A stretch of 64,000 nucleotides of DNA, from NCBI GenBank assembly GCA_029262415.1, contig JAJCZL010000058.1, positions 135,712 through 199,711 of the forward strand. The letters run 5' to 3'. The first letter of the stretch is position 1. Each line of letters begins with the position of its first letter. Below the pieces are notes generated by a model, which saw nothing but the letters and a program-made list of their open reading frames with translations, was not told the origin of the DNA and searched no databases. Positions 13,876 to 44,516 of this stretch are shown here, piece by piece. Source of the stretch: Deltaproteobacteria bacterium. Lineage in GTDB: Bacteria > Desulfobacterota > Binatia > UBA1149 > JAJCZL01. The position numbers were made by a program, and so were the translations under genes.

Positions 13876-15027
13876 GTGCCGAACTCCGATGCAGAAACAG
13901 CAGGTCCCGTAACTGCTTGGAATCGCTTGCTTGGTGCCGTCTCTACCGGGTTTGGTTTGCTGCATCCACAAGGGGTAACCGCAAGACTTTTACTCTTGAC
14001 TCTAGTGCTTGCCGTCTTGTTTGCCGCTACCGTTACCTCACGGCTGCTGCGGCCCGTCAGCATACTGGAGACTGTCGAGCTCAAAATCGAGCCCGGGGAG
14101 TCGCTCTCTAAGGTCGCGCAACGGCTGGCCGAGAGCGGCGTGATCCGCGACGCCAAACCTTTTGTTCTTTACGCGCGCGCGCTACGCCGCGACCGCGACA
14201 TCCGCCACGGCAAACATTTCTTCGGTGGCGTATTGGACGCACGTGCAGTCTTGGACGAACTGGTAAGTCCGCCACAACCCACGATGCGCGTCACGATCCA
14301 CGAAGGGCTGACGTTCGCCGAAGCCGGTGATCTACTCGAAGCAGCGGGCGTAGTTACCGCTGAGGAATACAGAGAGGCAGCGTGCGATCCCGATTTCGTC
14401 AGACTCGTCGGCGCAGCAAACACTGCGAACTGCAGCGAAGGTTTTCTTTTCCCCGACACCTACAACCTGCGCCCCGGGATGACAGCCGAAGAAATCGTTC
14501 GTCACCAGTACACGCGCTTCGAGAAAGTACTCGGCGCGATTCTGGCAGAGCGAGACACGACTTCTGCGCGTGTCGCCGCGTATACAGACGGAGAGACAGG
14601 CGTGGAAACGCTTAGCGAGAAGGTTCGCCAAGACCTGATCACCCTCGCCTCAATCGTACAGCGCGAGGCATTCGACCCTGCAGAGCAGCCGCTCATCGCA
14701 TCGGTGTTCCACAACAGGCTGGAGCGCACGATGATGCTGCAGGCGGACCCGACGATTATCTACGGTCTAAAGCTACGCGGCGTGTGGGACGGCAACATCA
14801 AACGCTCGCATCTACGCGAAGAAGCGCCGTACAACACCTACACAAACTACGGGCTTACACCGGGGCCGATCTGCAACCCCGGCGAGCACGCGCTGCGCGC
14901 CGCGCTCAATCCTTCTAACACCGAGTTTCTGTACTTCGTCGCGGAAAGCGACGGCGGCCATCGCTTTTCGCGCACACTCGCCGAACACAACCGCGCGGTG
15001 CGCGCGTTTCAACTCGGCAAACACTGA
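13876..15027 (+). CDS. mltG: Endolytic murein transglycosylase MltG (YceG)
   Basis: N-terminal TM, YceG-like domain, LYFVAESDGGHRFSRTLAEHNRAV. GTG start directly after the ruvX stop. Confidence 0.85.
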   Translation: MPNSDAETAGPVTAWNRLLGAVSTGFGLLHPQGVTARLLLLTLVLAVLFAATVTSRLLRPVSILETVELKIEPGESLSKVAQRLAESGVIRDAKPFVLYARALRRDRDIRHGKHFFGGVLDARAVLDELVSPPQPTMRVTIHEGLTFAEAGDLLEAAGVVTAEEYREAACDPDFVRLVGAANTANCSEGFLFPDTYNLRPGMTAEEIVRHQYTRFEKVLGAILAERDTTSARVAAYTDGETGVETLSEKVRQDLITLASIVQREAFDPAEQPLIASVFHNRLERTMMLQADPTIIYGLKLRGVWDGNIKRSHLREEAPYNTYTNYGLTPGPICNPGEHALRAALNPSNTEFLYFVAESDGGHRFSRTLAEHNRAVRAFQLGKH

Positions 15028-15116
15028 CAAATGCTCAAGGCTCGCAGGTCAGAGGAAAGAGGCCACGCTGAGCACGGTTGGCTCGACAGCTGCCAAGCAT
15101 TACCGGGTCTTAGTAG

Positions 15117-15863
15117 TCACTTATAGAGGTGAATTAGCGCATACCATGCGCGCCATTTTACAAAAGGTGCCGACAGGATTATTCGGTCGATCGGTCTTGT
15201 CAGGTGGAAAATAACATTTCGGAACATGGTATTGTCGATAAATGAGCTACCTATCGTCGTGAGACCATAGGTTTTCGTTTGAACTTTCGAAAACAGGTTC
15301 TCCGCAATTTCCAGATCGGATTTCAACAGTGGATGTTCGTCCGGAGTTCGAGCTTCCGGCGTTTTTTCGCGATACCAGTTTATAAACGGATTGTGCCCCA
15401 GTGGTTCGAGAAACAAGGCATGGCCATCCTGTTTCAGCACCCGTGAAATCTCGGACAGAGATTTTCGGGTATCGAGATGGTGAATGATGCCTGTTCCAAA
15501 TACGAGGTCGAAAGTATCATCGTCAAAGGTCATATCTTCGGCATTCATGACCCTAAAAGACGCATTTTTAATTGATAGATCACGGGCATTCCGCGTAGCG
15601 GCATCAATCGCAACATCCGAAATATCAATGCCAACGACGTCGCGTGCGAAATCCGACAATTCTAGTGAGCGTTGCCCCCTTGCGCACCCATATTCCAGGA
15701 TATCGCGTCCAGAGCTGAGGGCCTCAAGGTCTCTCTTATAGGCTGCAAAGCAGTCTCGCAACGAAGAGTAAAATTTGGATTGGGCTCTCGGACCTTCGGC
15801 TGCAAATCTATCGTTGTGAAACTCACGCTCTCTTTCAATTCGGTTAGAAGTATCCTGGTTCAT
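15117..15863 (-). CDS. Class I SAM-dependent methyltransferase (on low-GC island)
   Basis: Motif I ILEYGCARG, DLVFGTGIIHHL, LKQDGHALFLEP. Gene and flanks (about 15090-15960) have clearly lower GC than the neighbours. Confidence 0.7.
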   Translation of the reverse strand: MNQDTSNRIEREREFHNDRFAAEGPRAQSKFYSSLRDCFAAYKRDLEALSSGRDILEYGCARGQRSLELSDFARDVVGIDISDVAIDAATRNARDLSIKNASFRVMNAEDMTFDDDTFDLVFGTGIIHHLDTRKSLSEISRVLKQDGHALFLEPLGHNPFINWYREKTPEARTPDEHPLLKSDLEIAENLFSKVQTKTYGLTTIGSSFIDNTMFRNVIFHLTRPIDRIILSAPFVKWRAWYALIHLYK

Positions 15864-16110
15864 ATCTTGGGACCGATTATCTTGTAAGAGTTACTCTAGT
15901 AGAGTTTCTGGAAGAAATTACCAGTTGAGCGGTTACATCAGGGCGTTGTTAACTTATCGTCGGCGAGACGAGCTTCGGCCCTTTTGTATGACGGCGCCGA
16001 GTTGTTCTCCCCGCTAGTCTGCCGACCGGTCGCTCATGGCAACGCCGCGCAACGCAGGCTGTTGCGGCCGGGCCCTTGACTTTCGCTCTTCTTTCGCTAG
16101 TCTAGCGACC

Positions 16111-16719
16111 ATGGCTACCCTTACAAAGCGGCAAAAAGAAATTCTGGACTTCATCGAGGAACGAATCGCGCTAAACGGGTATGCGCCGACGCTCGAGGAG
16201 ATCGGCGAGCACTTCGGGCTACGCTCGATGGCCACCGTCCACAAACACGTCTCCAACCTTGAGGCCAAGGGGCTAATCAGACGTAAATGGAACCACAGCC
16301 GTGCGATCGAACTGGTCCAGAGAAAGCGCAGGGTAAACGCCCTAGAACTGCCGTTGCTCGGCCGCGTCGCCGCGGGGTCGCCGATTGAAGAACTCGAGGG
16401 AACCGACACAGTCGAGATCCCCGAGAGCATGGTCCGACGCAGCAACACCTTCGGGTTGCGCGTCAAGGGCGATTCGATGGTCGACGAGGGAATCCTCGAC
16501 GGCGATCTAATCATTGTCGAAGAGTGCCCGTCGCCGAACAACGGCGACATGGCCGTTGTCAGCGTCAATGGTGAAGCAACTGTAAAACGCTTCTATCGCG
16601 AAAGTAACGGCAGCATCCGCCTGCAGCCGGCTAACGACAGGTACGAACCCATCATCGTTGCCGACGGCAACGTCGCGGTACGGGGCGTCGTCGTTGCGGT
16701 GATGCGCCAGTATCACTGA
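16111..16719 (+). CDS. lexA: LexA repressor
   Basis: MATLTKRQKEILDFI... HTH plus S24 peptidase motifs (AAG cleavage site, GDSM, ...KRF). 202 aa. Confidence 0.9.
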   Translation: MATLTKRQKEILDFIEERIALNGYAPTLEEIGEHFGLRSMATVHKHVSNLEAKGLIRRKWNHSRAIELVQRKRRVNALELPLLGRVAAGSPIEELEGTDTVEIPESMVRRSNTFGLRVKGDSMVDEGILDGDLIIVEECPSPNNGDMAVVSVNGEATVKRFYRESNGSIRLQPANDRYEPIIVADGNVAVRGVVVAVMRQYH

Positions 16720-17911: not shown

Positions 17912-18541
17912 TCAGGCAACGGCGGGCTTCCTTGCGAGGCCGCGGATCGTAGGACGCACAATAGGAAGGGCCGCGCGCATGCTCTCGGCCTTGGTCCCCT
18001 CAAACACAAAGCCCCCGTTGGTCAGTTGCTCGGCGGTCTTGCGCGTAAGATGGCAATTGCCCATCATTCGCTTCCACAGCGGCTCGATACGCCGTTGCCA
18101 AACAGCACGTTTCGGATTGTTCGCGGCAGCAACGTGCTCGATGTAGACGAGCGCGCCGCCCGGCTTGAGAACACGGTAGATCTCCGCAATCGAACGAGCA
18201 GGGTCGGACACACTGCACAACACCAACGTACAGGCTACGTAGTCGAATGTGTTATCAGCAAACGGCAACGCTTCGAGCGGCGCATCGACGACTTCGACCC
18301 CCAGGCGTCCGCTCTGCGCGACCTTCTCGCCGAGTTTGCGCCGCATGAACGGATCGGGTTCGGCAAGAACCAACCTAGCCACCACGCTCGGATAGTGCTC
18401 GAGGTTGAGCCCGGTTCCGGTGCCGACCTCGAGGACCTCACCGGACAGCCCAGCGAGAAGTTCGCTTCGCCACGCGCGTAGCCCGGCCTCTTCGGTTTTA
18501 GCCAGAAAGCGGTCGTAGATGGCGGCCATGATTCTCGACAT
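17912..18541 (-). CDS. Class I SAM-dependent methyltransferase (type 11)
   Basis: LEVGTGTGLN...LKPGGALVYIEH. Confidence 0.7.
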   Translation of the reverse strand: MSRIMAAIYDRFLAKTEEAGLRAWRSELLAGLSGEVLEVGTGTGLNLEHYPSVVARLVLAEPDPFMRRKLGEKVAQSGRLGVEVVDAPLEALPFADNTFDYVACTLVLCSVSDPARSIAEIYRVLKPGGALVYIEHVAAANNPKRAVWQRRIEPLWKRMMGNCHLTRKTAEQLTNGGFVFEGTKAESMRAALPIVRPTIRGLARKPAVA

Positions 18542-23335: not shown

Positions 23336-24142
23336 TCAGTCACGCTTGCGTGCGACGATGACGAAGTAGCTCGGCTTGCGTACTCTTTCGAGGGGCCGGA
23401 CTGCAAGGTTCGCGAAAGGCCGTGTAAACACTTTACGAACCGCTTTATTGAGAAACCAATTGGAGAGATCCAACTGAAACCCCTGGCCAAATACCTGGCA
23501 GCCTTCGCTCGCAAAACCGCTCTGCCCGAGCGCGACCAATAGCTCGGATGCGGTGAACTCGCGCACGTGGAAGGGATTCTCCGGCTTGTCGGTAATCAAA
23601 CGGGCCCCGGGTGAGGACAGGAGACGGTTGGGAGAAGAGATCAATAACACCCCGTCGTCGGTCATCAACTCGCGGAGATTCACCAATGCGGCGGCGTAGT
23701 CGTCGACATGTTCGATCGTCTCATACGAAACGATCAACCCGTAACGCTCTCGCGACTGAAAGTCCTCGATCCCACCCCGATGATAGCTGACGTTGGGAAC
23801 CATAGGACGGGTTCTCGCGAACGCCAAAGCATCTTCGTCGACATCCACTCCGTGAACAAGGGATGCCCCCGCACGGCCCAGCATCTCGGTGCCGTAACCG
23901 CTGCCACACGCGATATCCAGAACCTTGTGTCCGCGCGCGTAACGGGCAGCGAAGCCGTAACGCTCCTCGTGGGCCTCGCGCAGCCAACGCGATCGATGTC
24001 CGGGAATGTAGCGCTCCCCGGTAAATGACAACGCAGCCGGATGCGAAAACGAAGGATGCGCGATGGGGAGTAGTGAACCAAGCTCTTCGGTGGATGCAGA
24101 TTCGGTTCGCGTCTCACCGGTCTTTCTTGCCAGCAACCCCAT
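23336..24142 (-). CDS. Class I SAM-dependent methyltransferase (EPS-locus associated)
   Basis: VLDIACGSGYGT...DDGVLLISSPN. Confidence 0.7.
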   Translation of the reverse strand: MGLLARKTGETRTESASTEELGSLLPIAHPSFSHPAALSFTGERYIPGHRSRWLREAHEERYGFAARYARGHKVLDIACGSGYGTEMLGRAGASLVHGVDVDEDALAFARTRPMVPNVSYHRGGIEDFQSRERYGLIVSYETIEHVDDYAAALVNLRELMTDDGVLLISSPNRLLSSPGARLITDKPENPFHVREFTASELLVALGQSGFASEGCQVFGQGFQLDLSNWFLNKAVRKVFTRPFANLAVRPLERVRKPSYFVIVARKRD

Positions 24143-24152
24143 CTTACCCTCC

Positions 24153-25571
24153 TCAGTTTCTCGACACACGCCCGAAACACCAGGGTGCGAAACCAAAGCG
24201 TTTGCACACCAACCCGAACGAGGATGCGGCAAGAGCAACTGTAATTGTGCAATTGGTGACTGCCGCCCCGACCAGCCCGAACCGCGGTATCAACACCAGG
24301 CCCAATAGCACTTGTAACACCAGAGTACCGGCCACGCAGCCAGCGACGTCGCGCTCGCGACCGCCCATGAGCAACACCTCTCGGGTGGGACCTGCGGCAA
24401 CCTCAACAAACTTACCGCAGGCAACGATCGTAAGCGCCGCTGCACCGGCCACAAACTCGTGCCCGAAAAGCGAGAGGCAGAGTGGTGGGAAGACCGCCAG
24501 GCCGCCCAAGACAGGCAACGAGCCGAGTGTAACCAGCCGCGCCGCCCGCACACAAACCACGGCGAGCTGCTCGTGGTTGCCGTTCTTGGCTAGAGCAGCC
24601 ATTCGCGGCGATACCCGCGTGTACACGGGCAAACGAAACCAAGTCGCGACGATTCCCAGGCGGAGCACCGCGCTGAAAATGCCGACTTCGGCCGAACCCA
24701 CCAACAAGCCGAGCAGTACGCAATCAATCGTCCCGAGCAAGACAAGCAGAATTTCGTTACCGAAAAAATACCCGCTCGAGCGTGCGCGCAACACGCCTTC
24801 GTTCAAGGCTGTGGTGAAACCTGCGCGCGCGCGCGCAGCGGAACCCCACCCTGCTGCAGTGGCGGCAGACGGCCCCGGTAGCCTACTCAGCGCGAACACG
24901 AACGTGAAGGCGCACGCTAAGGTCACCGCTAGCGTGTACACCAGCGCCGCGCCGCGGGGATCGCCGCCGATAGCCGCGAATGGGACCAATGCCAATGCCA
25001 GTGTAGGCACCGCAGCATTCTCGAAGAAGGTTGAGCCAGCCGCAGCACCGGTTCCGGCGAGGAACCGGCAGTTCACGACCAAAAGCGAAAGCGGCACAAC
25101 CGATAGAGCGATCGTACGGTACACCGGCGTGAACATGCCACCATCAGCAGCGGACGGCGAAAACAGCGGCTCTGCGGCCATCATGAGTGCAGATGCGGCA
25201 AACCCCACGAGAGCGACAACCGCGACCGAGCCCGCATAAACCCGACGAACCTGCTGCGTCCGCCCCTCGGAAAGCGCCCGCGCGGTATCTCGCAGCAGCC
25301 GCATACCGACGCCGAATCGGGCGAAGGTCGCGGCGACCAAACCGACGGCGACCGAGAACTGGAATACTCCCGCACCCGCCGCGCCGAGCAGGCGGGAGAC
25401 CGCGACATTGAACAGGAAAGCCGCGGGCAACCCGATGGCCCTGGCCATCAGGACCAGCGGGATCGACTGCGTCGGCCCAAGTTGAGGCGCTACGGCCGCT
25501 CGGGCCCGCACTGCCGCAGCGCGCCGGCTCGCGGCAGCGGCCGGCGAGTAGCCGGCCTCAAGCAAAGACAC
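24153..25571 (-). CDS. wzx: Polysaccharide flippase (Wzx/MOP superfamily)
   Basis: 472 aa, about 12-14 TM helices, typical composition of polysaccharide biosynthesis proteins. Confidence 0.65.
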   Translation of the reverse strand: MSLLEAGYSPAAAASRRAAAVRARAAVAPQLGPTQSIPLVLMARAIGLPAAFLFNVAVSRLLGAAGAGVFQFSVAVGLVAATFARFGVGMRLLRDTARALSEGRTQQVRRVYAGSVAVVALVGFAASALMMAAEPLFSPSAADGGMFTPVYRTIALSVVPLSLLVVNCRFLAGTGAAAGSTFFENAAVPTLALALVPFAAIGGDPRGAALVYTLAVTLACAFTFVFALSRLPGPSAATAAGWGSAARARAGFTTALNEGVLRARSSGYFFGNEILLVLLGTIDCVLLGLLVGSAEVGIFSAVLRLGIVATWFRLPVYTRVSPRMAALAKNGNHEQLAVVCVRAARLVTLGSLPVLGGLAVFPPLCLSLFGHEFVAGAAALTIVACGKFVEVAAGPTREVLLMGGRERDVAGCVAGTLVLQVLLGLVLIPRFGLVGAAVTNCTITVALAASSFGLVCKRFGFAPWCFGRVSRN

Positions 25572-26838
25572 GACCGTATCGCACGGTTTCGAGCCTTAGG
25601 TAAACGAAAAACATTGCGACCGCAGTTATCTGCGACGTGTAAGCCCAAATACTCACAATCGGCGACCACACGATGAATGTGTACACACACAGCAGAACGC
25701 CCACGGCGTAGGCACTACCCGCGCGAGCGCGTCGGAACGCGATCGCCCCGATCACGCCGAGCGCGAGCATCACAACGCAACAACCGATCACCCCGTAGTC
25801 CATAATGAGGCCCCGGTAAACAGAGAAGATATTCGAAAACTCTCCGCCTCCTAAGTCGACGAAATCGTCGTGGACTCCCAGTACGCGGGAACGAAGTCCG
25901 GAAAGTGCAAAAAGACCCATGAAAGTAAAGTAGCCGTAATTCAGTGTTTCCCCTCCGAACTGATGAGCGTCAAACCACGACGTGAACCCCGCCACCGTTC
26001 CGAGCGGCCACTTCCGAAGATGCATAACCACTTCGCCAACGCGGCCCACATCAATCTCGCCGATACGCGCGAACTGTAGGGCGATAAACATGGCGGCGGT
26101 TGCACTGAGACCCACGATACCACGCACAACGGTACGACGGCTTAGTGTCGTTCCGATTCTCGCAGGGTGGTAGTACACCCAAGCGGATAAGAACGAACTG
26201 AAGTATAAAACGATATCAAACAAGACCGAGGCGCGTGTGGTTAAGATAGCTGCTATCAACAAAGCCGGAATGAAGGGTAGGACGCTGAGCATCGACTGTT
26301 TGCGATTTACGTTGACCTGCGCAGCGGTACGGACGGCGGCGATCATGACTGCACAGTGCGCAGGGGCCATCAAGATACGTGCTGTAATCGGCATGGTGTA
26401 TCCGTAGATGTAACGCTCGCGTGTCATCGCGTTGGCCATCTTCAGGTACAAATCTAGATCGAAGAAGTAGGCGATCCCGTAGCCCGAGGTGTACATAACG
26501 ATAAGAGACGAGATCATCCCTGACGCGGTTCCAGCGAGGATCCAGTAGGTCGAGTACTTCGTTAGCTCGTAACGCGGGATGCGCGCCTCATCGACGGTTT
26601 GTGACCCGCCGCCGCGTTGTTCGACCGCCACAGAACCGATGAGCGTCAAGACAATCATCAGCAACAGGAACATCGACGCCCGAGGACTGAAGTTGTATCC
26701 GGGGACGAGGATCAGCGACGCAAGGATCACGCCGGTCCAGATAACCGCGAGCGCCAGGGCCGGCTTGATACTGTAGCCGAGCATCCGCCAACCGACCCCC
26801 AAGGTGAGCAAGTAGGCCAATATAATGAGGAAATTCAC
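25558..26838 (-). CDS. Oligosaccharide repeat-unit polymerase-like membrane protein (Wzy-like)
   Basis: 426 aa, polytopic with a large loop. Located between wzx and the GT genes. Confidence 0.5.
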   Translation of the reverse strand: MNFLIILAYLLTLGVGWRMLGYSIKPALALAVIWTGVILASLILVPGYNFSPRASMFLLLMIVLTLIGSVAVEQRGGGSQTVDEARIPRYELTKYSTYWILAGTASGMISSLIVMYTSGYGIAYFFDLDLYLKMANAMTRERYIYGYTMPITARILMAPAHCAVMIAAVRTAAQVNVNRKQSMLSVLPFIPALLIAAILTTRASVLFDIVLYFSSFLSAWVYYHPARIGTTLSRRTVVRGIVGLSATAAMFIALQFARIGEIDVGRVGEVVMHLRKWPLGTVAGFTSWFDAHQFGGETLNYGYFTFMGLFALSGLRSRVLGVHDDFVDLGGGEFSNIFSVYRGLIMDYGVIGCCVVMLALGVIGAIAFRRARAGSAYAVGVLLCVYTFIVWSPIVSIWAYTSQITAVAMFFVYLRLETVRYGRVFA

Positions 26839-26861
26839 CGCACCGCCACTCGCCTACGTCC

Positions 26862-28019
26862 CTACCGCGTCGTCTCCATCTGCGTCCAGAAAGGCACTCG
26901 CGTGCCGATCAGTCCGCGCGCCACCCCCACGGTGGTTGCAGCTACTGTTATCAGAAAGTAGCCAGGAATCGAAAGCACTCGTACCAGACGACCGCGGCCG
27001 CCAACCAACGCCACTCCCGCGGCCCCGAAGAACAAGATCTGTGCGGCCAGCGTCCAACCGTACAAGCCCTGCGGCTCGGCGGCGGCAAGGGCGGTGTTCG
27101 CGGCAAGCACCGCGAGCATGACGAACCCGCTCGCCCAACGCAGGACCTTGTGCGAAACCAGTTTGAACCAGTTGCGGCGTCCTACTCCGCGCAACTGCGG
27201 CACGATATGCAAGAAACTCGTCATCGATCGGTTCGCGATTCGGATCTTGCGGCGGAACTCTTCGCTGCTGTGCACCGTAGCCCGCTCGTACGCTTTCGCC
27301 TCCGGCGCGAACACAATCCTGGCCCCCTGTGCGATGACGCCCATCGATGTGCAAAAATCGTCGAGCACATGCTCGGGCAGCGGACGAAACAGCCGGCGGC
27401 GCACCGCAAAGATTGAGCCGTCGGCGCCCATCAGCGATCCAGTCTCGGACTCGGCGCGCTTGATCGCTTCTTCGTAACGCCAGTAAAGACCGCCGTTGGC
27501 CGCGTTCTCGGATTCGCCCTCGTTCGTGTAGTTGAGTTGCCCCTGCACGCAGCCAACCGATAGATCCTCGAACGGCCGTACCATGTAGGTGACTGCGTCA
27601 GGCGCAAGCATCACGTTCGCGTCGGTAAATAATAATATATCACCGTTCGCCGCGGCGGCGGAGTCGTTGACGATCGCCGTCTTACCGCGCCGTGGTTCGC
27701 CCTGAATAAACACGCCACCATCGGCCAGTGCCTCCCGGACAATCTCGTTGGTTGCGTCAGTCGAACCGTCGGAGGCGACAACCACTTCGAGACTTCCTTC
27801 GTAAACGAGCGCGCGTGTGTTTTCGATCTTCTTCGCTATCACCGAAGCTTCGTTGTGTGCCGGAATCACAACGGTAACCTTCGGAGGCTGTACGCAGGGC
27901 TGCGGATAGTCGCCGACAGGGTCAACCTTCGCCCACAGCGAAACCAACGCGGGGTAGCCAAAGTATGTGTAGACCAACAGGACTGCTCCGCCCCAAACTA
28001 CGAGTTCGAGTATCACCAT
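26862..28019 (-). CDS. Family 2 glycosyltransferase with terminal TM helices
   Basis: VVIPAHNEA...DGSTD...DAN...QG motifs. Confidence 0.8.
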   Translation of the reverse strand: MVILELVVWGGAVLLVYTYFGYPALVSLWAKVDPVGDYPQPCVQPPKVTVVIPAHNEASVIAKKIENTRALVYEGSLEVVVASDGSTDATNEIVREALADGGVFIQGEPRRGKTAIVNDSAAAANGDILLFTDANVMLAPDAVTYMVRPFEDLSVGCVQGQLNYTNEGESENAANGGLYWRYEEAIKRAESETGSLMGADGSIFAVRRRLFRPLPEHVLDDFCTSMGVIAQGARIVFAPEAKAYERATVHSSEEFRRKIRIANRSMTSFLHIVPQLRGVGRRNWFKLVSHKVLRWASGFVMLAVLAANTALAAAEPQGLYGWTLAAQILFFGAAGVALVGGRGRLVRVLSIPGYFLITVAATTVGVARGLIGTRVPFWTQMETTR

Positions 28020-28040
28020 AGTTGCCTCACGACGGTCGTT

Positions 28041-28958
28041 TCACCGCAGTTGCCTCGCAGCAAGCGACGCACTGTCGGGTAAAGCAGTGCCCACAGCCTC
28101 GTCGTCGCGCAAGTAGTTCCGGTAAGCGTAGTAGTGCGCATCAGCCAGGTGTGCGATCACCTGCTTGTTGGGAAAAAGACGGATCGCCCCATGCTCGCGG
28201 TGGTCAAAACTGAGCGTAGGTTCGTAACGGACACGGACGCCGAGCCGCCGGGCCTGTGCGCCAACGTGGACTTCTTCGCAGTACAAGAACGGTTGGTATT
28301 CCAGAGTGCCACCCGCCTCAAAAAAACACCGGTGAAAGAGCATGCACGAGCCATGTCCGGCAAAGATGTCGCGGGCTCGGGGGTCGCGAGCTTCGAGGAC
28401 ACCCGCGGCACCGACGTCCGACTTGGTCTTGAGTCGCTGCCTCCCGTGCGCCAGTAAGCGATAAGCGATCGCGAGCGGATAGCTGCGAAACAACATCGAC
28501 AGCCCAAGGTATCGGCGTGCGGAGGGCGCCTCTGGGTAAAAAGGGTTCTGGTCGGCCCCACTGCGCGCCGATCGGATTGTCGGCGCGAGAACACCGATCT
28601 TCTCGCGCGCGCACTGCGGTGCAAGTGCGTCCAGCCGTGCAACCAAGTCATCGGCGGCTGGTTGGAGGTCGCAGTTGCCGACGATCACCCACTCGGGCCG
28701 TTCGCCGCCCCCAGATTCGTAGGCACACAAGCCGTAGTATGCACCGCCGAAGTATCCACGGTTACGGCCGTCACCGACGAGCGCGAACCCGGTGCGTTCA
28801 CGTCGGTAGATCAGGTGCTCACGGTCGGGTGGATCGCTGTTGTCGACGATTAATAGGTCGATTCTTTCGCGGTCCTCGAGCCGGTCGATCGACTCGGCCA
28901 GACGCAGCGCATCGTCGTTGCTACGGTAGTTAACGGCTAGAAAAAGAATACGGTTCAT
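28041..28958 (-). CDS. Family 2 glycosyltransferase
   Basis: LAVNYRSND...VDNSD... GT-A fold motifs. Confidence 0.7.
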   Translation of the reverse strand: MNRILFLAVNYRSNDDALRLAESIDRLEDRERIDLLIVDNSDPPDREHLIYRRERTGFALVGDGRNRGYFGGAYYGLCAYESGGGERPEWVIVGNCDLQPAADDLVARLDALAPQCAREKIGVLAPTIRSARSGADQNPFYPEAPSARRYLGLSMLFRSYPLAIAYRLLAHGRQRLKTKSDVGAAGVLEARDPRARDIFAGHGSCMLFHRCFFEAGGTLEYQPFLYCEEVHVGAQARRLGVRVRYEPTLSFDHREHGAIRLFPNKQVIAHLADAHYYAYRNYLRDDEAVGTALPDSASLAARQLR

Positions 28959-28973
28959 TGGTTCTCTTTCCGC

Positions 28974-30464
28974 TCAGTGCGCGCCGGTTCGTTGCACGAC
29001 TGCAGGCACGGTACGCGCAAGCAGCGAGACATCGCGGAAGACGTTGTAACTCGCGATATAGTCGAGATCCATGAACGCGCGTTCAGGATATGCAACCGAA
29101 CTTCGGCCACTGACCTGCCAAAGTCCGGTCAACCCTGGACGCGCCGATAGGAACATCTCAGCGTAGACGCCGTAGCTCGCCAACTCGCCGGGAATGATCG
29201 GCCGCGGCCCGACCACGGCCATGTCACCGCGCAACACGTTCCAAAGCTGCGGGAGCTCGTCCAGACTGCTCCTGCGGAGAAACGCTCCGAGCCGCGTTAC
29301 GCGCGGATCTTCGCCCGACGGCAGTTTGAAGTCGTTGGCTACGTACTTAGCGTAAAGCTGTTTATCCGATCGCAGCCTCTCCTCTGCGTCAACGCGCATC
29401 GTACGGAACTTGAGAACCCGAAAACACCGCCCGCCGCGCCCAAGCCGTTCTTGACTGAACAACACGGGTCCCGGATCGAAGATCTTAATCGCAAGGACTA
29501 CGAGCAAACCGACCGGGAGCGCGAGCATGGCCGCCACACCCGAGACGGTTACGTCGAGAGCGCGCTTGAGACTGTCGTTGACCTCATCGCGCGGCATCGG
29601 CCCGAACGAGAGCATCGGGACACCCGAAAACTCGGTCACGCGCCCGCGGACTCCGTGCACGCCTGACTTCATCGCAGTGATCATCGAGACTAGGTTGCCG
29701 CGTTCGATCAGCGCCTGTGCCAGCGGAGCCATTTCAGCCAGGTCGCGTGCACCGCCGACCAGGAACACTTCATCGACTCCGTGTCGCTCGAGCACACCGT
29801 CGATGTCGGCGACCGTACCGAGCACCGGTACCGATAAGGCCTCTGCCGAGACGATCTTTTTCGTCAACAACACTCCGACCAGGTTGTAGCCGCTTCCGCT
29901 CGCACGCGAGAGCACATCGGCGAACGAGAAAGCAGGCTTGCCGTTGCCGACTACCAAAGCTTGGCGGGCGCGCGCTTTGCCGTGGCGCGCGCGACCCAGG
30001 AAGGCTATAACTGCAATATGTTTTCCGATCAGCAGCAAGACGGAAAGCGCGAAGTAATAGCCGAAGAATACGCGACTGACGGCGCCCATTTTGAGTATGA
30101 AGCCGGCAGCGGCCGATGCCCCCGCGGCCAGCAGCAGCGCCCAAGCGTAAGCGGCTAACATGCCGATCAGGCTTTTCGAACGTGGTTGGTGGTAGGCCCC
30201 AGAGACTGCAAGCGCGGAGATCCAGGCTAGGGTCGAAACCATGAGCAGGACGAAATAGTCTGAGGGGACGAGGTTCTCGGAGGTCCAGGGGATGACGGAG
30301 ATGCGGTTGAGAATTGGAAGCTCGGCGTGGAAGGCGCGCAAGACCAGCGCGGCACCGAATGCCAAACCTATTAAAGCAACGTCCAACGTAACCGATACGA
30401 CCCGCAGCATTCGCGCTCGTTCAAGGAACATTCCCCACCTCCTCACCACCGTCGTAGCGGCCAC
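28974..30464 (-). CDS. Polyprenyl-phosphate glycosyl-1-phosphate transferase (WbaP/EpsB-type priming sugar transferase)
   Basis: [10 protein letters not shown]...[21 protein letters not shown]...[21 protein letters not shown]. Confidence 0.85.
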
Positions 30465-30567
30465 ATCGGGTGCCGCCCCGGGCGCATGGTTCGCGGCCCT
30501 CGTCCTTACAGCCGCGCTGCTCCCCCTGGGAGCACGCTCACAAGCGGCACTCAGCCTTCTGCTTCTC

Positions 30568-31854
30568 TTGGTCGGCGCCGGATCGCTCGTCGCGATCGGC
30601 GCCTGCGTAGTTCGCTACGGACTCGACTCGACCCCGCAGGCGCTGCTCGAGGGAAGTACCCCGCTCGCGCTCATTGGATTCCCGCTCATCGTTGCGTTCC
30701 AACTCGCTTGGCAACTCGGACCGGGCCTCAGCCACGGCCCGTCGCACGAGATGCTGCAGTCGCTTTTGCTGCTGTCCGCTCTGGCAACATTCTACCTGAT
30801 AGTGCGCTTGACAGTGAACGACGAGAACGCCGTTCGGCGAATGTTTTTCTTTCTTTTCGCGGTCGGCGGACTGCAGGCCGGCTACGCCGTCCTTAACCTG
30901 CTTGCAGGCAATGAACGGCTGCTCATTTATGAACGTTGGGCCTATTTGAACTCGGCTACCGGCACACTGGTGTCGCGAAACCACTTCGCATTCTTAATGG
31001 AAATGCTGTTGCCGTTCGGCATCGCGTGTACCGCGTTGACTGGAGCCAGCACGGTCGGACGCTCCGCGCGCCGACTCTCGCGCGAGAAAGCACCGATCTC
31101 GAGCGAAGTCAGTGCGCAACGGGGGATGATGATCGCGGTTGTAGTCATGATGGGGCTCGCGCTGGTGTTTTCGCGCTCAAGAATGGGCATCGCGAGCCTC
31201 GGCCTCGCCTGGCTGACGGTTACTGCCGCCGATCGGTTACTGCGTCCCGACAACAGACGTCGCACCGCTGAGCGCAAACGACGCGCCGCGCCGCTGCTCG
31301 CGATCGCGCTGGTTGCGGCCTATGCCGCCGTGATCGGGCTGGAGCCGGTCATCGAACGGTTCTTGCACTTGCCCCAGGACCTCGAGAACGGACGAATGCC
31401 GATCTGGACGGCAACCGCAAATATGATCGCCGATGCTCCTATCCTCGGGCACGGCTGGGGGACATTCGAGGCGCTGCTGCCGGGTTACCGTTCCGAGCCG
31501 ACCGGGTTTTACTACGACCACGCCCACAATGAATACTTGGAGGTCTTCGCTGAGTCGGGGATCATCGGCCTAGGCCTGCTCGCATGGCTCCTGTTCTTAT
31601 TCGGACGGCGCGCCGTACACGCACTCTCTGCACGCTGGGAGCCGGCCGACAGGGCGGCGGTCTTTTGGAGCACCGTCGCAATCGTTTCTGTGCTCATCCA
31701 TTCGGCAGCCGACTTCGGGCTGCGAACACCCGGCGTCGCCTTCACCTTTATGGTCGTCCTTGCCGTGTACTCACGGCTTACTGAAAAATGGGCCACGACA
31801 CATCAACCGGGTACTTCTCGCCCGCCGCGAGCGATCACCTCCGCGTCGGTCTGA
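30568..31854 (+). CDS. O-antigen ligase family (Wzy_C domain) membrane protein
   Basis: HGWGTFEALLP...YDHAHNEYLEVFAESGIIG. Start uncertain: the ORF opens at 30292 but overlaps the convergent gene. TTG at 30568 chosen. Confidence 0.6.
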   Translation: MVGAGSLVAIGACVVRYGLDSTPQALLEGSTPLALIGFPLIVAFQLAWQLGPGLSHGPSHEMLQSLLLLSALATFYLIVRLTVNDENAVRRMFFFLFAVGGLQAGYAVLNLLAGNERLLIYERWAYLNSATGTLVSRNHFAFLMEMLLPFGIACTALTGASTVGRSARRLSREKAPISSEVSAQRGMMIAVVVMMGLALVFSRSRMGIASLGLAWLTVTAADRLLRPDNRRRTAERKRRAAPLLAIALVAAYAAVIGLEPVIERFLHLPQDLENGRMPIWTATANMIADAPILGHGWGTFEALLPGYRSEPTGFYYDHAHNEYLEVFAESGIIGLGLLAWLLFLFGRRAVHALSARWEPADRAAVFWSTVAIVSVLIHSAADFGLRTPGVAFTFMVVLAVYSRLTEKWATTHQPGTSRPPRAITSASV

Positions 31855-31860
31855 GCCGCA

Positions 31861-32685
31861 ATGATCGACATACATTCGCATTTGTTGCCGGGTATCGACG
31901 ATGGCCCCAAGACCTGGGCGCAGTCGCTCGACCTTTGCCGCGCGATCGTCGACGACGGAATCCAGCTATCAGTGGCAACTCCGCATCTGATCGACGGCGT
32001 CTATGAAAATACCCGCTCGGTGGTCGAGCCATTGACCATCGAACTCAACCAACGGCTCGGCGACGCCGGCGTGGCGCTGCGTGTTCTACCGGGAGCCGAG
32101 GTCGACTTCTCATCGCGCTTTGCGACCGACGGTGGCGCCGGACTGCCGAGTCTCGCCGGAGCAGGTGCGGTGTTACTCGAGATGCCGATGACCGTCGTAC
32201 CGCCGGCTATTTTAGAAACAATCTTCGCGATCCGCTCCCGCGGCGGCATCGCCGTCATCGCCCACCCCGAACGCAACGAAGTCTTGCAAGACAATTTCCG
32301 GATCGCACACAGTTGGATCGAAGCGGGTGCGCTTCTACAATTGGACGGCGATTCGCTGTTGGGACTCTGGGGCAACCGCACGCAGCGCTGCGGTGAAGAA
32401 TTACTGTGCGCCGGGCTCGCCCACGCTATCGCCAGCGACGCCCACTCGACCACCAAACGCCCTCCCCGTCTGACCCGCGCGCTCGAGCGTGCCGTCACCT
32501 TGATCGGCGACTCGGCCGTCAAGCTCACCGGAGACGGCCCGCGCGCGATCGTCGGAGGGCTCAGCCCAGGCGCCTGCCTCACCGAACCTGCGACTCAACA
32601 GATCCAGGCTACCCGCACTAGGGACGCCCGCGGCAAACGGCAGCGCGGTTTGCTCGGTCGATTGTTCAAAAGCATCGGAAGGTAA
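31861..32685 (+). CDS. CpsB/CapC-type (PHP-domain, Mn-dependent) protein-tyrosine phosphatase
   Basis: MIDIHSHLLPGIDDGP...ATPH...AHPER. Confidence 0.75.
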   Translation: MIDIHSHLLPGIDDGPKTWAQSLDLCRAIVDDGIQLSVATPHLIDGVYENTRSVVEPLTIELNQRLGDAGVALRVLPGAEVDFSSRFATDGGAGLPSLAGAGAVLLEMPMTVVPPAILETIFAIRSRGGIAVIAHPERNEVLQDNFRIAHSWIEAGALLQLDGDSLLGLWGNRTQRCGEELLCAGLAHAIASDAHSTTKRPPRLTRALERAVTLIGDSAVKLTGDGPRAIVGGLSPGACLTEPATQQIQATRTRDARGKRQRGLLGRLFKSIGR

Positions 32686-33990
32686 GGACCGCCCGGGGCC
32701 GGGCTCGACTCCGTTTTCGGACCCGTCGGTAAGACGGGTCAACTTAACTTCGTCGAGCCAAAACTCACCACCTATAAAACGATTAAGAGACTTCACCTCG
32801 TGACGCAAAACTGCGATCCGAATACCGAGGCAAGCCTCAGGTACTGCAAACTCGAGCGCCACCGGATGCCAATATTCGGTCCCGCGCACCGGGTTGGTCG
32901 CGGCGTATAAACGACAACGCTCGTTGACGGCTCCGGCTTCGCCGCGCAACCCCTGGACGGCCAAGACAGGCCCGCCTGCTGACGTGATTTCGACCGCTTT
33001 CACGTAAGCATCGACCCGATAGCGTCCACCCGGTTGCACCGGTAAGTATTGCGTGACCCCTGCAAAGTCTGGGTTGTGCTCGCCGTCAAACACGATACGC
33101 AAAGCGCGCGCTCCTTCGGTACAATCGCGGCACAACGGCACATCGACGCGCACACTATCGGGGTGTTTGTTGAAGATGCGCCAACCGAAGCCACCATACA
33201 TGGCGCCCACCGGCACCGCCTCTTCGAAGTCACCGTTCAATACAGACGCGTCGGACACGAAACGGCGATCGGTTACGATCTCCCATGCCTCCTGAGCAAG
33301 GCCGCGCCTGAGCAAGAGGTCGACAAAAGCTGGGGTGACGTAGTCAGCAGGTTCGCCTCCGGCGACAATGCGCTTCCACGCTATCCGCGTCGTCGCAACC
33401 CCCAAGTTGCGACGCGCGAACGTGAAGTACTCTTCGAGGACCGAGTCGGTGATGACCTCGTTGATGACGAAGTCATCGATGTAGATACGGTGCAGCAGAG
33501 CAAAGAGTTCGTGGCGATCGCTTCGACGGCCGGCCAACGCCGCACCAAACTCCGCTGCGGCCTCCTGGTGACGGTCGGTTCGCGCGAGTAGCACTGCGGC
33601 CCTTAACCGTACATCGGTGTTTGACCGACCGTACTGAAAGGCGCGGTTCAGGTACTTGCTGGGGTCCTCGCCCCGGTCGGCAGCAAGCTCGGCCAGGCCT
33701 AAATAGCAAAACGCGCAAGCCGGGTTGCGCGAAAGCGTTTCGAGATATAGCGACTCCGCCTCTTGCGAACGCCGCAGCGTACGGCTGACCTCGGCCAGTT
33801 TAAACGTGTTCTCCCAGTCCAACGGCGCGGTACGTGCTGCAGCCCTGAGTGCCTCGAGCCGCCCGGAGTCGCCGGACCTCGAACGCAGTTGGGCGGCCAA
33901 CTCAGCTCCGCTTACAACAACCGTTACAGCGGCGAATACCGCGAGTAGTGAAATTGCCGCACGCTTAGCGGCGTCGCGAACCGGCTCCAC
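32401..33990 (-). CDS. Secreted TPR-repeat protein with C-terminal beta-rich domain
   Basis: N-terminal signal peptide and TPR-like repeats. The last ~95 codons overlap cpsB antisense and are low-complexity. Confidence 0.5.
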   Translation of the reverse strand: MEPVRDAAKRAAISLLAVFAAVTVVVSGAELAAQLRSRSGDSGRLEALRAAARTAPLDWENTFKLAEVSRTLRRSQEAESLYLETLSRNPACAFCYLGLAELAADRGEDPSKYLNRAFQYGRSNTDVRLRAAVLLARTDRHQEAAAEFGAALAGRRSDRHELFALLHRIYIDDFVINEVITDSVLEEYFTFARRNLGVATTRIAWKRIVAGGEPADYVTPAFVDLLLRRGLAQEAWEIVTDRRFVSDASVLNGDFEEAVPVGAMYGGFGWRIFNKHPDSVRVDVPLCRDCTEGARALRIVFDGEHNPDFAGVTQYLPVQPGGRYRVDAYVKAVEITSAGGPVLAVQGLRGEAGAVNERCRLYAATNPVRGTEYWHPVALEFAVPEACLGIRIAVLRHEVKSLNRFIGGEFWLDEVKLTRLTDGSENGVEPGPGRSLPSDAFEQSTEQTALPFAAGVPSAGSLDLLSRRFGEAGAWAEPSDDRARAVSGELDGRVADQGDGTLERAGQTGRAFGGRVGVAGDSVGEPGAQ

Positions 33991-33996
33991 GCCGAC

Positions 33997-36327
33997 TCAG
34001 GCCGCACGTTCGACGTCGGTCACACCGTCGTCCTGCGCGCCGGGGCGGCCATAGTACCCGTAGTAGCCGTAGTAGGAGAAGCGGTCTGATCGCGTCGAAA
34101 CACGGTTGAGAACGACGCCGAGAAGTTTCGACTGCATGCGCGTCATGTAGTCGCAGGCTTGTTGCGCGACTCTACGCGGCGTCATACCCGCACGGGTTAC
34201 CAGCAGGCAACCACCACCGAGCCGGTTGCTCAGCACCGGCACATCGGCGAAGCCGAGCGTCGGCGGAGCATCAACTATGATGTGATCGTAGCGATCGTCG
34301 AGTTCGCTGAGCATCGCACCCATACGTGCAGAGTCGAGCAAATCTACCGGGTTGGGCGAAACCGGTCCTGCCGCCACGACGTCTAACCCAGGCTGGTGCG
34401 TCCCGTGGATGATCTGGTCGATCCCCATGTTACCGGCGATGTAGTTGGTAACCCCGGGCGATTGCGGGACCTCGAGCGCGCAATGAACTCGTGGCTTCCG
34501 AAGATCGCAATCGATGATAACGACACGCTTGCCCATCTGCGCAAGTGCGGCCGCAAGGTTTGTGGCAATACAGGTCTTGCCCTCGCTCGGTCGTGCACTC
34601 GTGATCAGCAACCGCGTCGGCAGACCACCTACAGCGGCGAGGAACAGCGACGCGCGTAACGTGCGGATCGCTTCGGCACCTGCCGAGGTCGGCTGCAGTG
34701 AGACTTGCATGTCCGGCGAGGTCGCCTCGCGGCCATCCTCCGCGTCTGCAACGGCAAACTCAGGCACTGTGCCGAGTACCGGCAAGCGCAAGGAACGCTC
34801 GACATCCCCAGGCGTGCTCATCGAGTCGTCCATGTACTCTTGGAAGAAGGCTAGGCCGACTCCGCCAAATAGCCCGAGCATCATCGCCATCGCCATATTA
34901 AGCGGCAAATCCGGCGTATCCGGGTTGAGCGGAACCTCGGGAATATCGACGAGGGTAATATTCGAGGACCGGATAGCCTCGGTGACCTCGACTTCTTTCA
35001 TGCGACGGAGCAGGTCTTCGTAGATCTGCCGGTTGGTATCAACCTCACGGCGCATGATCTTAAAGTCGATCGCCTTGTCTTCGTATATCTGGATGACCTT
35101 GCGCTGGCTCTCGAGTTGGAAGCGAAGCAAGGCTTCACGATCCAACGCTGTACGGAAATCCGCAGCGACGCTGGCCACAATCGTGTCGGCCTGCTCCTGA
35201 ATCGTGTTCTCGATATCGGCGATGCGTGCGTCGAGCACCTTGACCGGCGGGTACTCGGCCGTAAACCGCCCACCAAGCTGCGCGCGCTCGGCACGCGAAG
35301 TCGCCAATTCTTCTTTCAACTTACCGACCAACGGATCGTTGACGATGATCGGCAACGACCAGCGATCGGGGCCCAGCATCTGGTTGTGCAGCGCTTCCAA
35401 CTTTATGCGTTCCGACTCCCCGTTTGTCAGCCGGTTGTTGATGTCGGCAAGGCGCTCGTGGATTACCTCTTCTTCTTGGTCGATCGCGTAGATCTCACGG
35501 CCCTTGGCAAAGGCGTGGAGTTCCAGCTCTGTCTCTTCCAGCCGAGCCTTGGTGACGTCGAGTTGCTTAGAGATAAAGTTACGACCCTGCGCCGCTGCTT
35601 CGATGCGCTGGTCCAACGTCAAGTCGATGTACTCGCGCGCCATCGCATCGGCGACCTTGGCGGCGGTCTCAGGGTCGGGGTTATAAAAACTCAGCTCGAC
35701 CAAAAACGACTTGCGACGCGGTCGAACCGCGATGCTTTCACCGAACTTCTCCAGAAGTTCCTGTTCTTTCTCACGTGCGATGAGCTCAGGATCAGGCTCA
35801 CCGGAAACGATCGATTTGAGCGATGAGACCATCCTTAACACCGTCGACTCGCCCATGCTGTCGCCGTTCAACCAAGGGTCGTTTTCTAAGCCGACCTTCT
35901 CAATGGTGCGCTTGGCTAAGCGGCGACTGGCGAGCAAATCGTACTGGGTCTGAAAGAAGTCGCTGTAAGCCTGCGCGCCTTGCGAGGATTGTTCGACCTC
36001 GTCGAATCCGACCACGTTGGGTCCACCCGGACGGATCTGAAGAAGAGCTGTCGAGCGGTAAAGCGGGGTAGCTGCGAGCGTGAAAATCAGTGCACTCAGC
36101 GCACAAAAACCAAACACCGCAGCGGCTGTCCAACGCCGCCGCAAAATCACCTGCAGGAAATCCCAGAGGTGCGTCTCTCGGCCGCCGAACCCTCCTGGGT
36201 CGGCCGGCGTACCGTACGCAGGCCGGTCGCGGTCGCTGATCGTTCCGGCACGTTCCTGCGCACGGATTTCTGCCGGAACGAACATTCCCGGCGGAAGTGA
36301 GGGTGAAGTGTCCTTACGGTCGGCCAT
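33997..36327 (-). CDS. wzc: Polysaccharide co-polymerase / BY-type tyrosine autokinase (Wzc/EpsB-like)
   Basis: Wzz-type periplasmic domain, Walker A SARPSEGKTCIATNLA, DxD, C-terminal Tyr cluster SYYGYYGYYG. Start at MADRKD (36325-36327). Confidence 0.85.
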   Translation of the reverse strand: MADRKDTSPSLPPGMFVPAEIRAQERAGTISDRDRPAYGTPADPGGFGGRETHLWDFLQVILRRRWTAAAVFGFCALSALIFTLAATPLYRSTALLQIRPGGPNVVGFDEVEQSSQGAQAYSDFFQTQYDLLASRRLAKRTIEKVGLENDPWLNGDSMGESTVLRMVSSLKSIVSGEPDPELIAREKEQELLEKFGESIAVRPRRKSFLVELSFYNPDPETAAKVADAMAREYIDLTLDQRIEAAAQGRNFISKQLDVTKARLEETELELHAFAKGREIYAIDQEEEVIHERLADINNRLTNGESERIKLEALHNQMLGPDRWSLPIIVNDPLVGKLKEELATSRAERAQLGGRFTAEYPPVKVLDARIADIENTIQEQADTIVASVAADFRTALDREALLRFQLESQRKVIQIYEDKAIDFKIMRREVDTNRQIYEDLLRRMKEVEVTEAIRSSNITLVDIPEVPLNPDTPDLPLNMAMAMMLGLFGGVGLAFFQEYMDDSMSTPGDVERSLRLPVLGTVPEFAVADAEDGREATSPDMQVSLQPTSAGAEAIRTLRASLFLAAVGGLPTRLLITSARPSEGKTCIATNLAAALAQMGKRVVIIDCDLRKPRVHCALEVPQSPGVTNYIAGNMGIDQIIHGTHQPGLDVVAAGPVSPNPVDLLDSARMGAMLSELDDRYDHIIVDAPPTLGFADVPVLSNRLGGGCLLVTRAGMTPRRVAQQACDYMTRMQSKLLGVVLNRVSTRSDRFSYYGYYGYYGRPGAQDDGVTDVERAA

Positions 36328-36337
36328 GGCTACGTCT

Positions 36338-37312
36338 TCAGAGCTTTCTGTCGAAGCGGAGAATTCCGAGTGCGCGGTCAAAGAAGTACTTCGCTCCGGA
36401 CATCGGGACAACCACAACGTCGTCCTCTTGTACGAAGAAATCCTCGGCGCGCCCGTCTCGAATGGCCGCAAGCCTAACCGGGATTTTCTCACGCTGACCG
36501 TCGTCAAGCTTGCGCAACAGAACGGCACCGGAAATGTTGGCCAGTGTGAGGTCCGCGCCGCCTGCGGTGGCGACTGCCTGACTGACGGTCGTCGGTTGCT
36601 GGAGCGGGTAGGCACCGGGTTTGTTGACCATCCCTTCTACGTAGAATGTCCCGGCCTGGGGGACGTTGATCACGTCGCCCGGCACCAATGCGACATTCAA
36701 CTGCAACTCGCCGCCGCCGGTGATGCGCTCCAGGTCGATAAGTGCGGTCTCTATGCCCGCGTCCGTTTGGCGTGTTATGCGGATGTTTCGACCGGCGTCT
36801 TCGTTCAAACCACCCGCCATCGCCAGGCCTTCGAGAAGACTCTTGCGACCGCGTAATTCAAAGACCCCCGGCTGCTGGACAAACCCCACGATTGAAATCT
36901 GATAACTGCGGTACTCCTTAATGAACACCGCGACCTGAGGGTCGTGGATGAACTTCTTGTAGTGCGTGACGAGACTCCGTTCGAGTTCGTAGGAACTGAG
37001 TCCGCCCGCCTCGACCTTACCTACGAAGGGAAGCGTTACGTGGCCGACGTTGGAAACCCGCACCGGGACGATGCGCGGACCCTGGTTGTCCTCGATGTCA
37101 AAAAGAGTGACTTCGAGTAGATCTTCGGGGCCGATCTTGTACTCGCCGGCGGCCGCGGTTTGGCCGGCCATGAGTGCGATAGAGTTGTTAATCTCTGCGT
37201 TTTCATCCGCATCGATGTTGTGGTCACGGAAAGCAGGGGAGATCGAACACGCCGACACCAACCCACACACAATCGACCCGAGAAGAGCGCTGCGTACGGC
37301 TGTAGGTGTCAT
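36338..37312 (-). CDS. wza: Polysaccharide export outer-membrane lipoprotein Wza
   Basis: Lipobox LVSAC. PES motif YKIGPEDLLEVTLF. SLBB-like repeats. Confidence 0.85.
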   Translation of the reverse strand: MTPTAVRSALLGSIVCGLVSACSISPAFRDHNIDADENAEINNSIALMAGQTAAAGEYKIGPEDLLEVTLFDIEDNQGPRIVPVRVSNVGHVTLPFVGKVEAGGLSSYELERSLVTHYKKFIHDPQVAVFIKEYRSYQISIVGFVQQPGVFELRGRKSLLEGLAMAGGLNEDAGRNIRITRQTDAGIETALIDLERITGGGELQLNVALVPGDVINVPQAGTFYVEGMVNKPGAYPLQQPTTVSQAVATAGGADLTLANISGAVLLRKLDDGQREKIPVRLAAIRDGRAEDFFVQEDDVVVVPMSGAKYFFDRALGILRFDRKL

Positions 37313-41841: not shown

Positions 41842-41863
41842 TTTGATGCCTCCGTTTCGTTAC

Positions 41864-42697: not shown

Positions 42698-42748
42698 TGG
42701 GCACACCTCCGATGTCGGGTCAGGTTCCGGCACTTCCACTAGTGGCAG

Positions 42749-42764
42749 AGCACAGCCTGTGCCA
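42749..42764 (-). promoter_or_regulatory. Sigma-54 promoter (minus-strand reading TGGCACAGGCTGTGCT; GG-N10-GC) about 40 nt upstream of the LolA-like start
   Basis: Read from sequence. Matches TGGCAC-N5-TTGC at the key positions. Confidence 0.45.
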
Positions 42765-42865
42765 GGATGGCCGCAGCAAATCCAAGCACTTACGTTCACG
42801 ATTTCCTAGCCGTGAGAAAATCTGAGCGCCGCGTATTCTTGAAAGCGAGAGAGCGAAGGGGGACT

Positions 42866-44470: not shown

Positions 44471-44486
44471 CGGCACGGAAGCTGCA
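44471..44486 (+). promoter_or_regulatory. Sigma-54 promoter CGGCACGGAAGCTGCA (GG 44472-3, GC 44484-5) upstream of the DHOD-like gene
   Basis: Read from sequence. RBS aaggag and the ATG at 44517 follow. Confidence 0.5.
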
Positions 44487-44516
44487 TGGTAGGGGCCGAC
44501 ACCGAAGGAGTTACCG

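Follow-up and report, generated by a model that had tools for sequence, protein, structure and literature searches.

Within the 64-kb stretch of DNA analysed here (hereafter, the window), a single methyltransferase gene lies inserted between mltG and lexA, and its horizontal acquisition, as an ordinary single-gene transfer, is supported. The original prediction had proposed such an acquisition, and it is corroborated by the outlying composition of the gene, by an empty site in six relatives and by closest homologues that reside in genomes of 48–50% GC. As the gene keeps the composition of a 47–50% GC lineage, the transfer has not been ameliorated, and the acquisition therefore suggests itself as comparatively recent. 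Taken as a whole, an insertion with donor-like composition that brought in a putative surface-polysaccharide enzyme is probably the best explanation of the locus, with the parts of this reading graded separately below.

The islet (positions 15060–15960) has a GC content of 47.1%, against 60.6% for the entire window, and is the GC minimum of the 64 kb. Compared with 900-bp windows elsewhere (0.608 ± 0.020), its value of 0.471 corresponds to z = −6.9, and the runner-up 900-bp window reaches 0.542. In steps of 80 bp, the fall in GC starts near 15100 and has recovered by about 15960–16000. A low-GC islet of about 0.9 kb had been proposed from inspection and is borne out by these values, but the surroundings, which had been put at about 65% GC, measure about 60–61%. 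The suggested analysis of GC and codon usage was carried out, and the methyltransferase gene alone stands out in the 64 kb. Its GC3 is 0.478, versus 0.701 ± 0.034 for the 48 other ORFs of the window (z = −6.5), and its CAI-like index, trained on the codon usage of the window's own genes, is 0.534 versus 0.683 ± 0.033 (z = −4.5), which makes it the sole outlier among 49 ORFs by either measure. The GC content at codon positions 1, 2 and 3 is 0.53, 0.40 and 0.48, compared with about 0.63, 0.46 and 0.70 in the neighbouring genes. Elsewhere, a mild dip to about 0.56 is seen at 56000–57500, around an ORF at 56605–57294.

The arrangement of the locus is given in Table 1. Both flanking genes are confirmed by Pfam, in agreement with the predicted position of the islet between mltG and lexA, and the methyltransferase is antiparallel to the two genes, again as predicted. 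An M23 peptidase gene and ruvX precede mltG, and a HemW-like radical-SAM gene follows lexA. The mltG gene has a GC content of 0.596 and a GC3 of 0.667; its database copy (exact-match protein P0121, whose relatives are named MltG) is 340 amino acids long, which places the start near 14005. The spacer between the stop codons of mltG and the methyltransferase gene contains a terminator-like hairpin on the minus strand (15063–15077), downstream of the methyltransferase, and this spacer has no credible ORF, no significant single-strand fold and no further copies at other places of the 64 kb. The AT-rich stretch upstream of the methyltransferase is presumed to be its imported promoter or 5′ region, and neither a consensus sigma-70 promoter nor a Shine-Dalgarno sequence was recognised within it. 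The GC-rich spacer beyond has a fold z-score of −1.2, which is not significant.

Table 1. Coordinates of the features of the locus, of the host polysaccharide cluster and of the corresponding regions in relatives
Feature	Sequence	Positions	Strand	Remarks
mltG (YceG-like endolytic transglycosylase)	window	13876–15027	+	Pfam PF02618, E 4.5e-81; native left boundary
Spacer, mltG stop to methyltransferase stop	window	15028–15116		GC about 0.57; native or imported
Acquired class I SAM-dependent methyltransferase (predicted)	window	15117–15863	−	248 aa, intact; Pfam match
Region upstream of methyltransferase	window	15864–15960	−	AT-rich (39–50% GC)
Spacer, islet to lexA promoter	window	15961–16075		GC-rich (57–66%); native or imported
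lexA promoter/operator	window	16076–16103	+	native, intact; conserved in six relatives
lexA	window	16111–16719	+	202 aa; Pfam LexA_DNA_bind and Peptidase_S24; native right boundary
NodS-like methyltransferase	window	23336–24238		host Wzx/Wzy cluster
Wzx flippase	window	24153–25571		host Wzx/Wzy cluster
GT2	window	26862–28019		host Wzx/Wzy cluster
Bac_transf initiating transferase	window	28974–30464		host Wzx/Wzy cluster
Wzy_C	window	30292–31854		host Wzx/Wzy cluster
Wzz/GNVR tyrosine-kinase co-polymerase	window	33997–36615		host Wzx/Wzy cluster
lexA promoter region	window	16076–16113
lexA promoter region	L064	4103–4151		mltG–lexA spacer 46 bp
lexA promoter region	L065	1371–1428		mltG–lexA spacer 55 bp (L065/L066)
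lexA promoter region	L067	8075–8170		mltG–lexA spacer 93 bp
lexA promoter region	L148	6057–6212		mltG–lexA spacer 153 bp
lexA promoter region	L149	4005–4198		mltG–lexA spacer 191 bp
lexA promoter region	L150	6096–6168		mltG–lexA spacer 70 bp
dTDP-sugar/glycosyltransferase cluster	L149	7729–9004
dTDP-sugar/glycosyltransferase cluster	L150	7965–11095
dTDP-sugar/glycosyltransferase cluster	L067	13327–15074

The start codon of lexA is the ATG at 16111, giving a protein of 202 amino acids as in the relatives (201–202), and not the in-frame upstream ATG at 16036, from which a spurious extended ORF of 227 amino acids can be read. With this start, the mltG–lexA spacer amounts to 1083 bp. The lexA promoter comprises a −35 box (TTGACT, 16076–16081), a direct repeat (TTCGC-N6-TTCGC, 16082–16097) that is the only perfect match to this pattern in the window, and a −10 box (TAGTCT, 16098–16103). 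The ATG lies 7 nt past the −10 box, so that the lexA transcript of the window is apparently leaderless; a start about 7 nt past the −10 box is likewise seen in L064 and L065, and L067, L148 and L149 have long leaders. The direct repeat, with its 11-bp period between the −35 and −10 boxes, is present in the window and in all six relatives, and presumably resembles the alphaproteobacterial GTTC-N7-GTTC SOS box and not a palindromic box. Co-regulation of the methyltransferase with the divergent lexA in the SOS response is not supported: the sole LexA-type repeat of the window is the lexA operator, 219 bp upstream of the methyltransferase ATG, no second box was found, and no promoter-like site was detected on the methyltransferase side. 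A 16-nt near-copy of the lexA −10/start region (16095–16110) is located 83 bp upstream at 16012–16027, with 14 of 16 positions identical, and the upstream ATG at 16036 comes after it. As 7 of 500 shuffled sequences score as high, the match is marginal, and the near-duplicate may have been left behind by the insertion or have arisen by chance.

The original prediction also suggested comparing synteny in relatives. Six independent contigs (those listed with a spacer length in Table 1) were found by protein search with MltG, to which their proteins are 45–61% identical; some of the homologues retrieved are labelled Candidatus Binatia, and one of the six relatives bears the label Binatia. The block comprising the M23 peptidase gene (minus strand), ruvX, mltG, lexA and hemW is present in all six, and in each case lexA directly follows mltG without an intervening gene, across a spacer of 46–191 bp compared with 1083 bp in the window. 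The spacers of the relatives share a lexA promoter/operator of the form TTGAC-nTTCGC-N5-nTTCGC-TAnnnT, which is intact in the window. The compact spacers in six relatives, together with the intact conserved promoter, identify a lineage-specific insertion of about 0.86–1.05 kb: about 1.05 kb (15028–16075) is extra in the window, of which about 0.86 kb (15100–15960) is compositionally foreign, and the GC-normal pieces at 15028–15100 and 15961–16075 may be native spacer or may have come in with the insert. As the insert lies between the mltG stop codon and the lexA −35 box, nothing has been disrupted. Even the nearest of these empty-site relatives are distant, with MltG at most 61% identical, and a search of GTDB representative genomes with the MltG query returned only more distant matches (at most 39% identity), none with lexA beside mltG. 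A second class I methyltransferase gene of the window (17912–18541, minus strand, 209 amino acids, with a weak Anamorsin_N-like match) lies directly after hemW, 2 kb away from the acquired gene. It has native composition, occupies the same place in L065 (3261–3884), and is unrelated to the acquired methyltransferase beyond the SAM-binding core.

A search for homologues of the acquired methyltransferase returned 2081 proteins at E ≤ 1e-3, distributed over Alpha- and Gammaproteobacteria, Planctomycetota and plasmids. Cultivable organisms with a family member include Hirschia litorea, Phyllobacterium zundukense and Mesorhizobium sp. L-2-11 (plasmid MesoLjLa4). The closest (P0002) is 71% identical at the amino acid level and 67.6% at the nucleotide level, and is encoded on a 20-kb contig of 48% GC where its gene, with a GC content of 0.465, is in line with its neighbours. 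The next (P0003, labelled Halieaceae) is 57% identical and comes from a contig of 50% GC. In a neighbour-joining tree the window methyltransferase is sister to P0002, followed by P0003. Across the 54 homologue loci with enough flanking sequence for the comparison, the gene-minus-flank difference in GC is −0.014 ± 0.021 with a minimum of −0.07, versus −0.138 in the window.

The acquired protein is confidently predicted from its sequence to be a class I SAM-dependent methyltransferase. Pfam returns Methyltransf_11 with 71 bits (cut-off 21.2), Methyltransf_31 with 69.9 (27) and Methyltransf_25 with 68.6 (27), at E values of about 1e-19, and the gene is the only long ORF of the islet; the original assignment as the islet's sole gene accordingly stands. 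The seven-stranded Rossmann-like alpha/beta fold was recognised. In an alignment of 35 sequences, SAM motif I (L56-E-Y-G-C-A-R-G63) and the acidic end of strand 2 (G78-I-D80) are invariant or nearly so, and the window protein is full length and keeps all 32 family-invariant columns. Outside the core, the family has invariant motifs of its own, namely ERxFHN in an N-terminal helix, IIHHL, EPLGxN, and YRxxTPxxRTPDEHPL in a C-terminal lid. H16, Y32, H128/H129, E153, N158, R165, R172 and D175–H177 are among the invariant residues. The profile search that had been suggested for a specific subfamily thus recovers the class I core in Pfam, but no NCBIfam subfamily. The window protein reaches 45.4 bits with UbiE/MenG (TIGR01934), whose cut-off is 158, and scores 28–38 against 216–351 for PRK00216 variants, 34 against 390 for PmtA and 33–45 against 240–575 for ArsM, and it lies far below the cut-offs of BioC and other NCBIfam models. 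The label of UbiE/MenG quinone methyltransferase, given to homologues by some sources, is rejected, the score being below the trusted cut-off. No characterised member of the family was found in the PDB, in NCBIfam or by a full-text literature search.

A lead to the function comes from gene neighbourhoods. The gene for P0002 resides in an exopolysaccharide cluster, with a GT4 glycosyltransferase, a 424-aa protein, three further methyltransferases, a GT2 glycosyltransferase, a Wza-like exporter and YjbH. Around 80 metagenomic homologues, 124 neighbours (within two genes on either side) were compared with Pfam, and the commonest families were GH16 (8), DnaG primase (6), Wzy_C (6) and GT1 (5), followed by GT2 (3), Polysacc_synt flippases (3 and 2) and polysaccharide deacetylase (2). 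DnaG primase is a housekeeping protein; the remaining recurrent families are polysaccharide genes. A module of Wzy_C, methyltransferase and GH16 recurs, in the order GT2, Wzy_C, methyltransferase, GH16, GT1 at one locus (L125) and as deacetylase, an unassigned gene, methyltransferase, Wzy_C, GH16 at another (L145), and a copy on a Mesorhizobium plasmid has a 4-bp overlap with the gene for a sugar transferase. Clustering of the sequences gives a polysaccharide neighbour at 15 or more of 79 homologue loci, and about 80% show none. At nine metagenomic loci (L081, L083, L086, L089, L095, L098, L106, L107 and L131) the methyltransferase is directly upstream of dnaG–rpoD on the same strand, and at many others it is solitary. 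The dnaG–rpoD context is a conserved housekeeping one and differs from that of the polysaccharide loci; functionally distinct subgroups may exist within the family.

The host has a Wzx/Wzy-type cluster of its own at 23336–36615, which is 7.5–21 kb downstream of the islet; the window methyltransferase is solitary, about 7.5 kb from this cluster and not inside it. Besides the genes in Table 1, the cluster encodes proteins of 426 (after Wzx), 305 (after GT2) and 529 amino acids (after Wzy_C), and its ORF at 25558–26838 ranks second in the window, after the islet, for low GC (0.55). Past the cluster, at 39915–46645, are genes for an alginate-export-family porin, a LolA-like protein, a sigma-54-dependent response regulator and a PAS histidine kinase, which together may serve to regulate or export the same polymer. 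In L149, L150 and L067, a dTDP-sugar/glycosyltransferase cluster (rmlC, rmlA, GT2, GT4) starts 0–5 kb past hemW. The occurrence of such clusters near hemW in several relatives indicates a region that is polysaccharide-associated and variable across the lineage.

The substrate had originally been held not to be deducible from sequence. This mostly stands, as the substrate is settled neither by a curated family nor by a solved structure; the homologue neighbourhoods, on the other hand, suggest surface-polysaccharide modification. Tentatively, the protein may be a cytoplasmic O-methyltransferase acting on a sugar of a Wzx/Wzy-type surface polysaccharide, either on the lipid-linked repeat unit or on the polymer. 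The wider proposal, that the family is a portable stand-alone decorator of Wzy-type polysaccharides and that its capture beside lexA changed the surface glycan of the host, is rather unlikely; if true, a naked single gene would have altered a surface glycan without a recognisable mobile element. About equally possible as a polysaccharide sugar is a small-molecule or lipid substrate, the transfer being the same and the enzyme serving in detoxification or secondary metabolism or acting on a lipid or cofactor in the manner of PmtA or UbiE. The best structural and profile matches (TleD, YcgJ, XrdM, phosphoethanolamine N-methyltransferases and a GPP C-methyltransferase) point in this direction, as do the predominance of homologue loci without a polysaccharide neighbour and the isolation of the window copy from any pathway cluster. 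These matches are mostly to small-molecule methyltransferases and cover the generic Rossmann core only. Against such a substrate, the scores for UbiE, PmtA and ArsM given above reach no curated family, the recurrent neighbours apart from DnaG are polysaccharide-related, and the gene for the closest homologue is itself within an exopolysaccharide cluster.

Signatures of mobility were sought for the route of entry. No tRNA gene was found in the 64-kb window, and none of the ORFs within the islet or next to it encodes an integrase or a transposase. Comparison of the two flanks revealed no direct repeat or target-site duplication, the best left/right alignment being matched by 487 of 500 shuffles; terminal inverted repeats are at chance level (a perfect repeat of 9 nt, and one of 18 nt at 83%), and the islet flanks have no further copies within the window. 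No attC-like hairpin was detected, as both strands of 15000–15125 fold more weakly than shuffled sequences (z = +0.9 and +1.8), and Rfam gave no match in 14800–16300. Among 2.9 million viral contigs there were no relatives, and phage records gave only generic YcgJ-like matches. An integron gene cassette is rejected for lack of an attC-like fold downstream of the ORF, and a phage vector is not supported by the viral searches. With no trace of a mobility gene or site, the candidate routes are DNA uptake followed by illegitimate recombination, and an element that has since eroded.

It is very unlikely that the insert is cargo of a mobile element, whether an integron cassette at a secondary site, a MITE-like or IS-mobilised unit, or a phage remnant. 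The single-gene size of about 1 kb would suit such cargo, and the family is mobile in general, as some of its members are carried by plasmids of rhizobia and others have IS elements or transposases as neighbours. The folding, repeat, tRNA, integrase/transposase and viral results just described all argue against it. Just as little probability is assigned to an assembly or binning artefact, in which a 0.9-kb low-GC piece from another organism of the metagenome was spliced in. Records of the exact proteins come from one NCBI contig of 202 kb, without a second observation, which would be compatible with such an error; yet a clean, complete gene with its flanks sits exactly in an intergenic spacer, with the neighbouring genes and the lexA promoter intact, and the two junctions have no repeat in common that could mislead an assembler. 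Chimeric joins, moreover, normally break contigs, and do not insert about 0.9 kb and then resume the same locus.

An ancestral native gene, lost once or independently in the sampled relatives and kept at low GC by selection, is extremely improbable. The distance of the relatives (45–61% MltG identity) leaves loss conceivable by parsimony alone, but the GC3 of the gene is 22 points below that of every other gene in the window, its nearest homologues are on low-GC contigs of proteobacterial type and not in the relatives of the host, and all six relatives, widely diverged as they are, agree in having a compact spacer and in the layout of the promoter. A role as an orphan DNA methyltransferase or within a methylation-based defence system, to which a PADLOC match to mad2 of the MADS system (E 4e-19) might point, can be dismissed as scarcely credible, as this match is confined to the generic SAM-binding core (positions 286–400 of the 492 in the profile), no DNA-methylase Pfam family is matched, there are no partner genes, and the nearest structures are those of methyltransferases acting on small molecules or sugars.

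In the favoured reading, that of horizontal acquisition, a fragment of about 0.86–1.05 kb from a lower-GC lineage (about 47–50%), carrying one complete methyltransferase gene with its own upstream region, would have entered the short mltG–lexA spacer of a host of roughly 61% GC, probably a relative of Binatia, just upstream of the lexA −35 box. The flanking genes and the lexA promoter/operator would have stayed intact, and the enzyme would decorate a sugar of a Wzx/Wzy-type surface polysaccharide, plausibly that of the host cluster at 23.3–36.6 kb. The locus offers a clean, well-bounded example of single-gene transfer in a poorly sampled lineage, the recipient site lying in a conserved block of housekeeping genes; with the empty site in six relatives and no mobility signature, it may be regarded as a textbook case and as a benchmark for island detectors. 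The islet also draws attention to a large methyltransferase family (more than 2000 homologues) with distinctive invariant motifs, a recurrent link to polysaccharide clusters and no matching curated model.

The islet is not a new kind of system. It shares with classical genomic islands an atypical GC content and codon usage and a locus that is empty in relatives. It differs from them in being only about 1 kb long, with one gene and without integrase, tRNA or flanking repeats, and is better described as a single-gene 'islet'. The encoded protein resembles generic class I methyltransferases such as YcgJ of B. subtilis (PDB code: 1XXL) and BH2331 (PDB code: 1VL5) in the core, at residues 50–155 approximately, to which the likeness is confined; the N-terminal helical pair with ERxFHN and the C-terminal lid with EPLGxN...YRxxTPxxRTPDEHPL are peculiar to the family, with no solved or curated counterpart. 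The best PDB match of the family profile is the sugar O-methyltransferase RebM (E 8e-20), and the sugar O-methyltransferase AtmM and the polysaccharide-terminating methyltransferase domain of WbdD match as well, with 15–23% identity, over the core only and with TM scores of 0.55–0.59. The likeness to WbdD extends to gene context, as members of the family also occur within Wzy- or export-type polysaccharide clusters, but WbdD has a kinase and a coiled-coil domain, whereas the window methyltransferase has neither.
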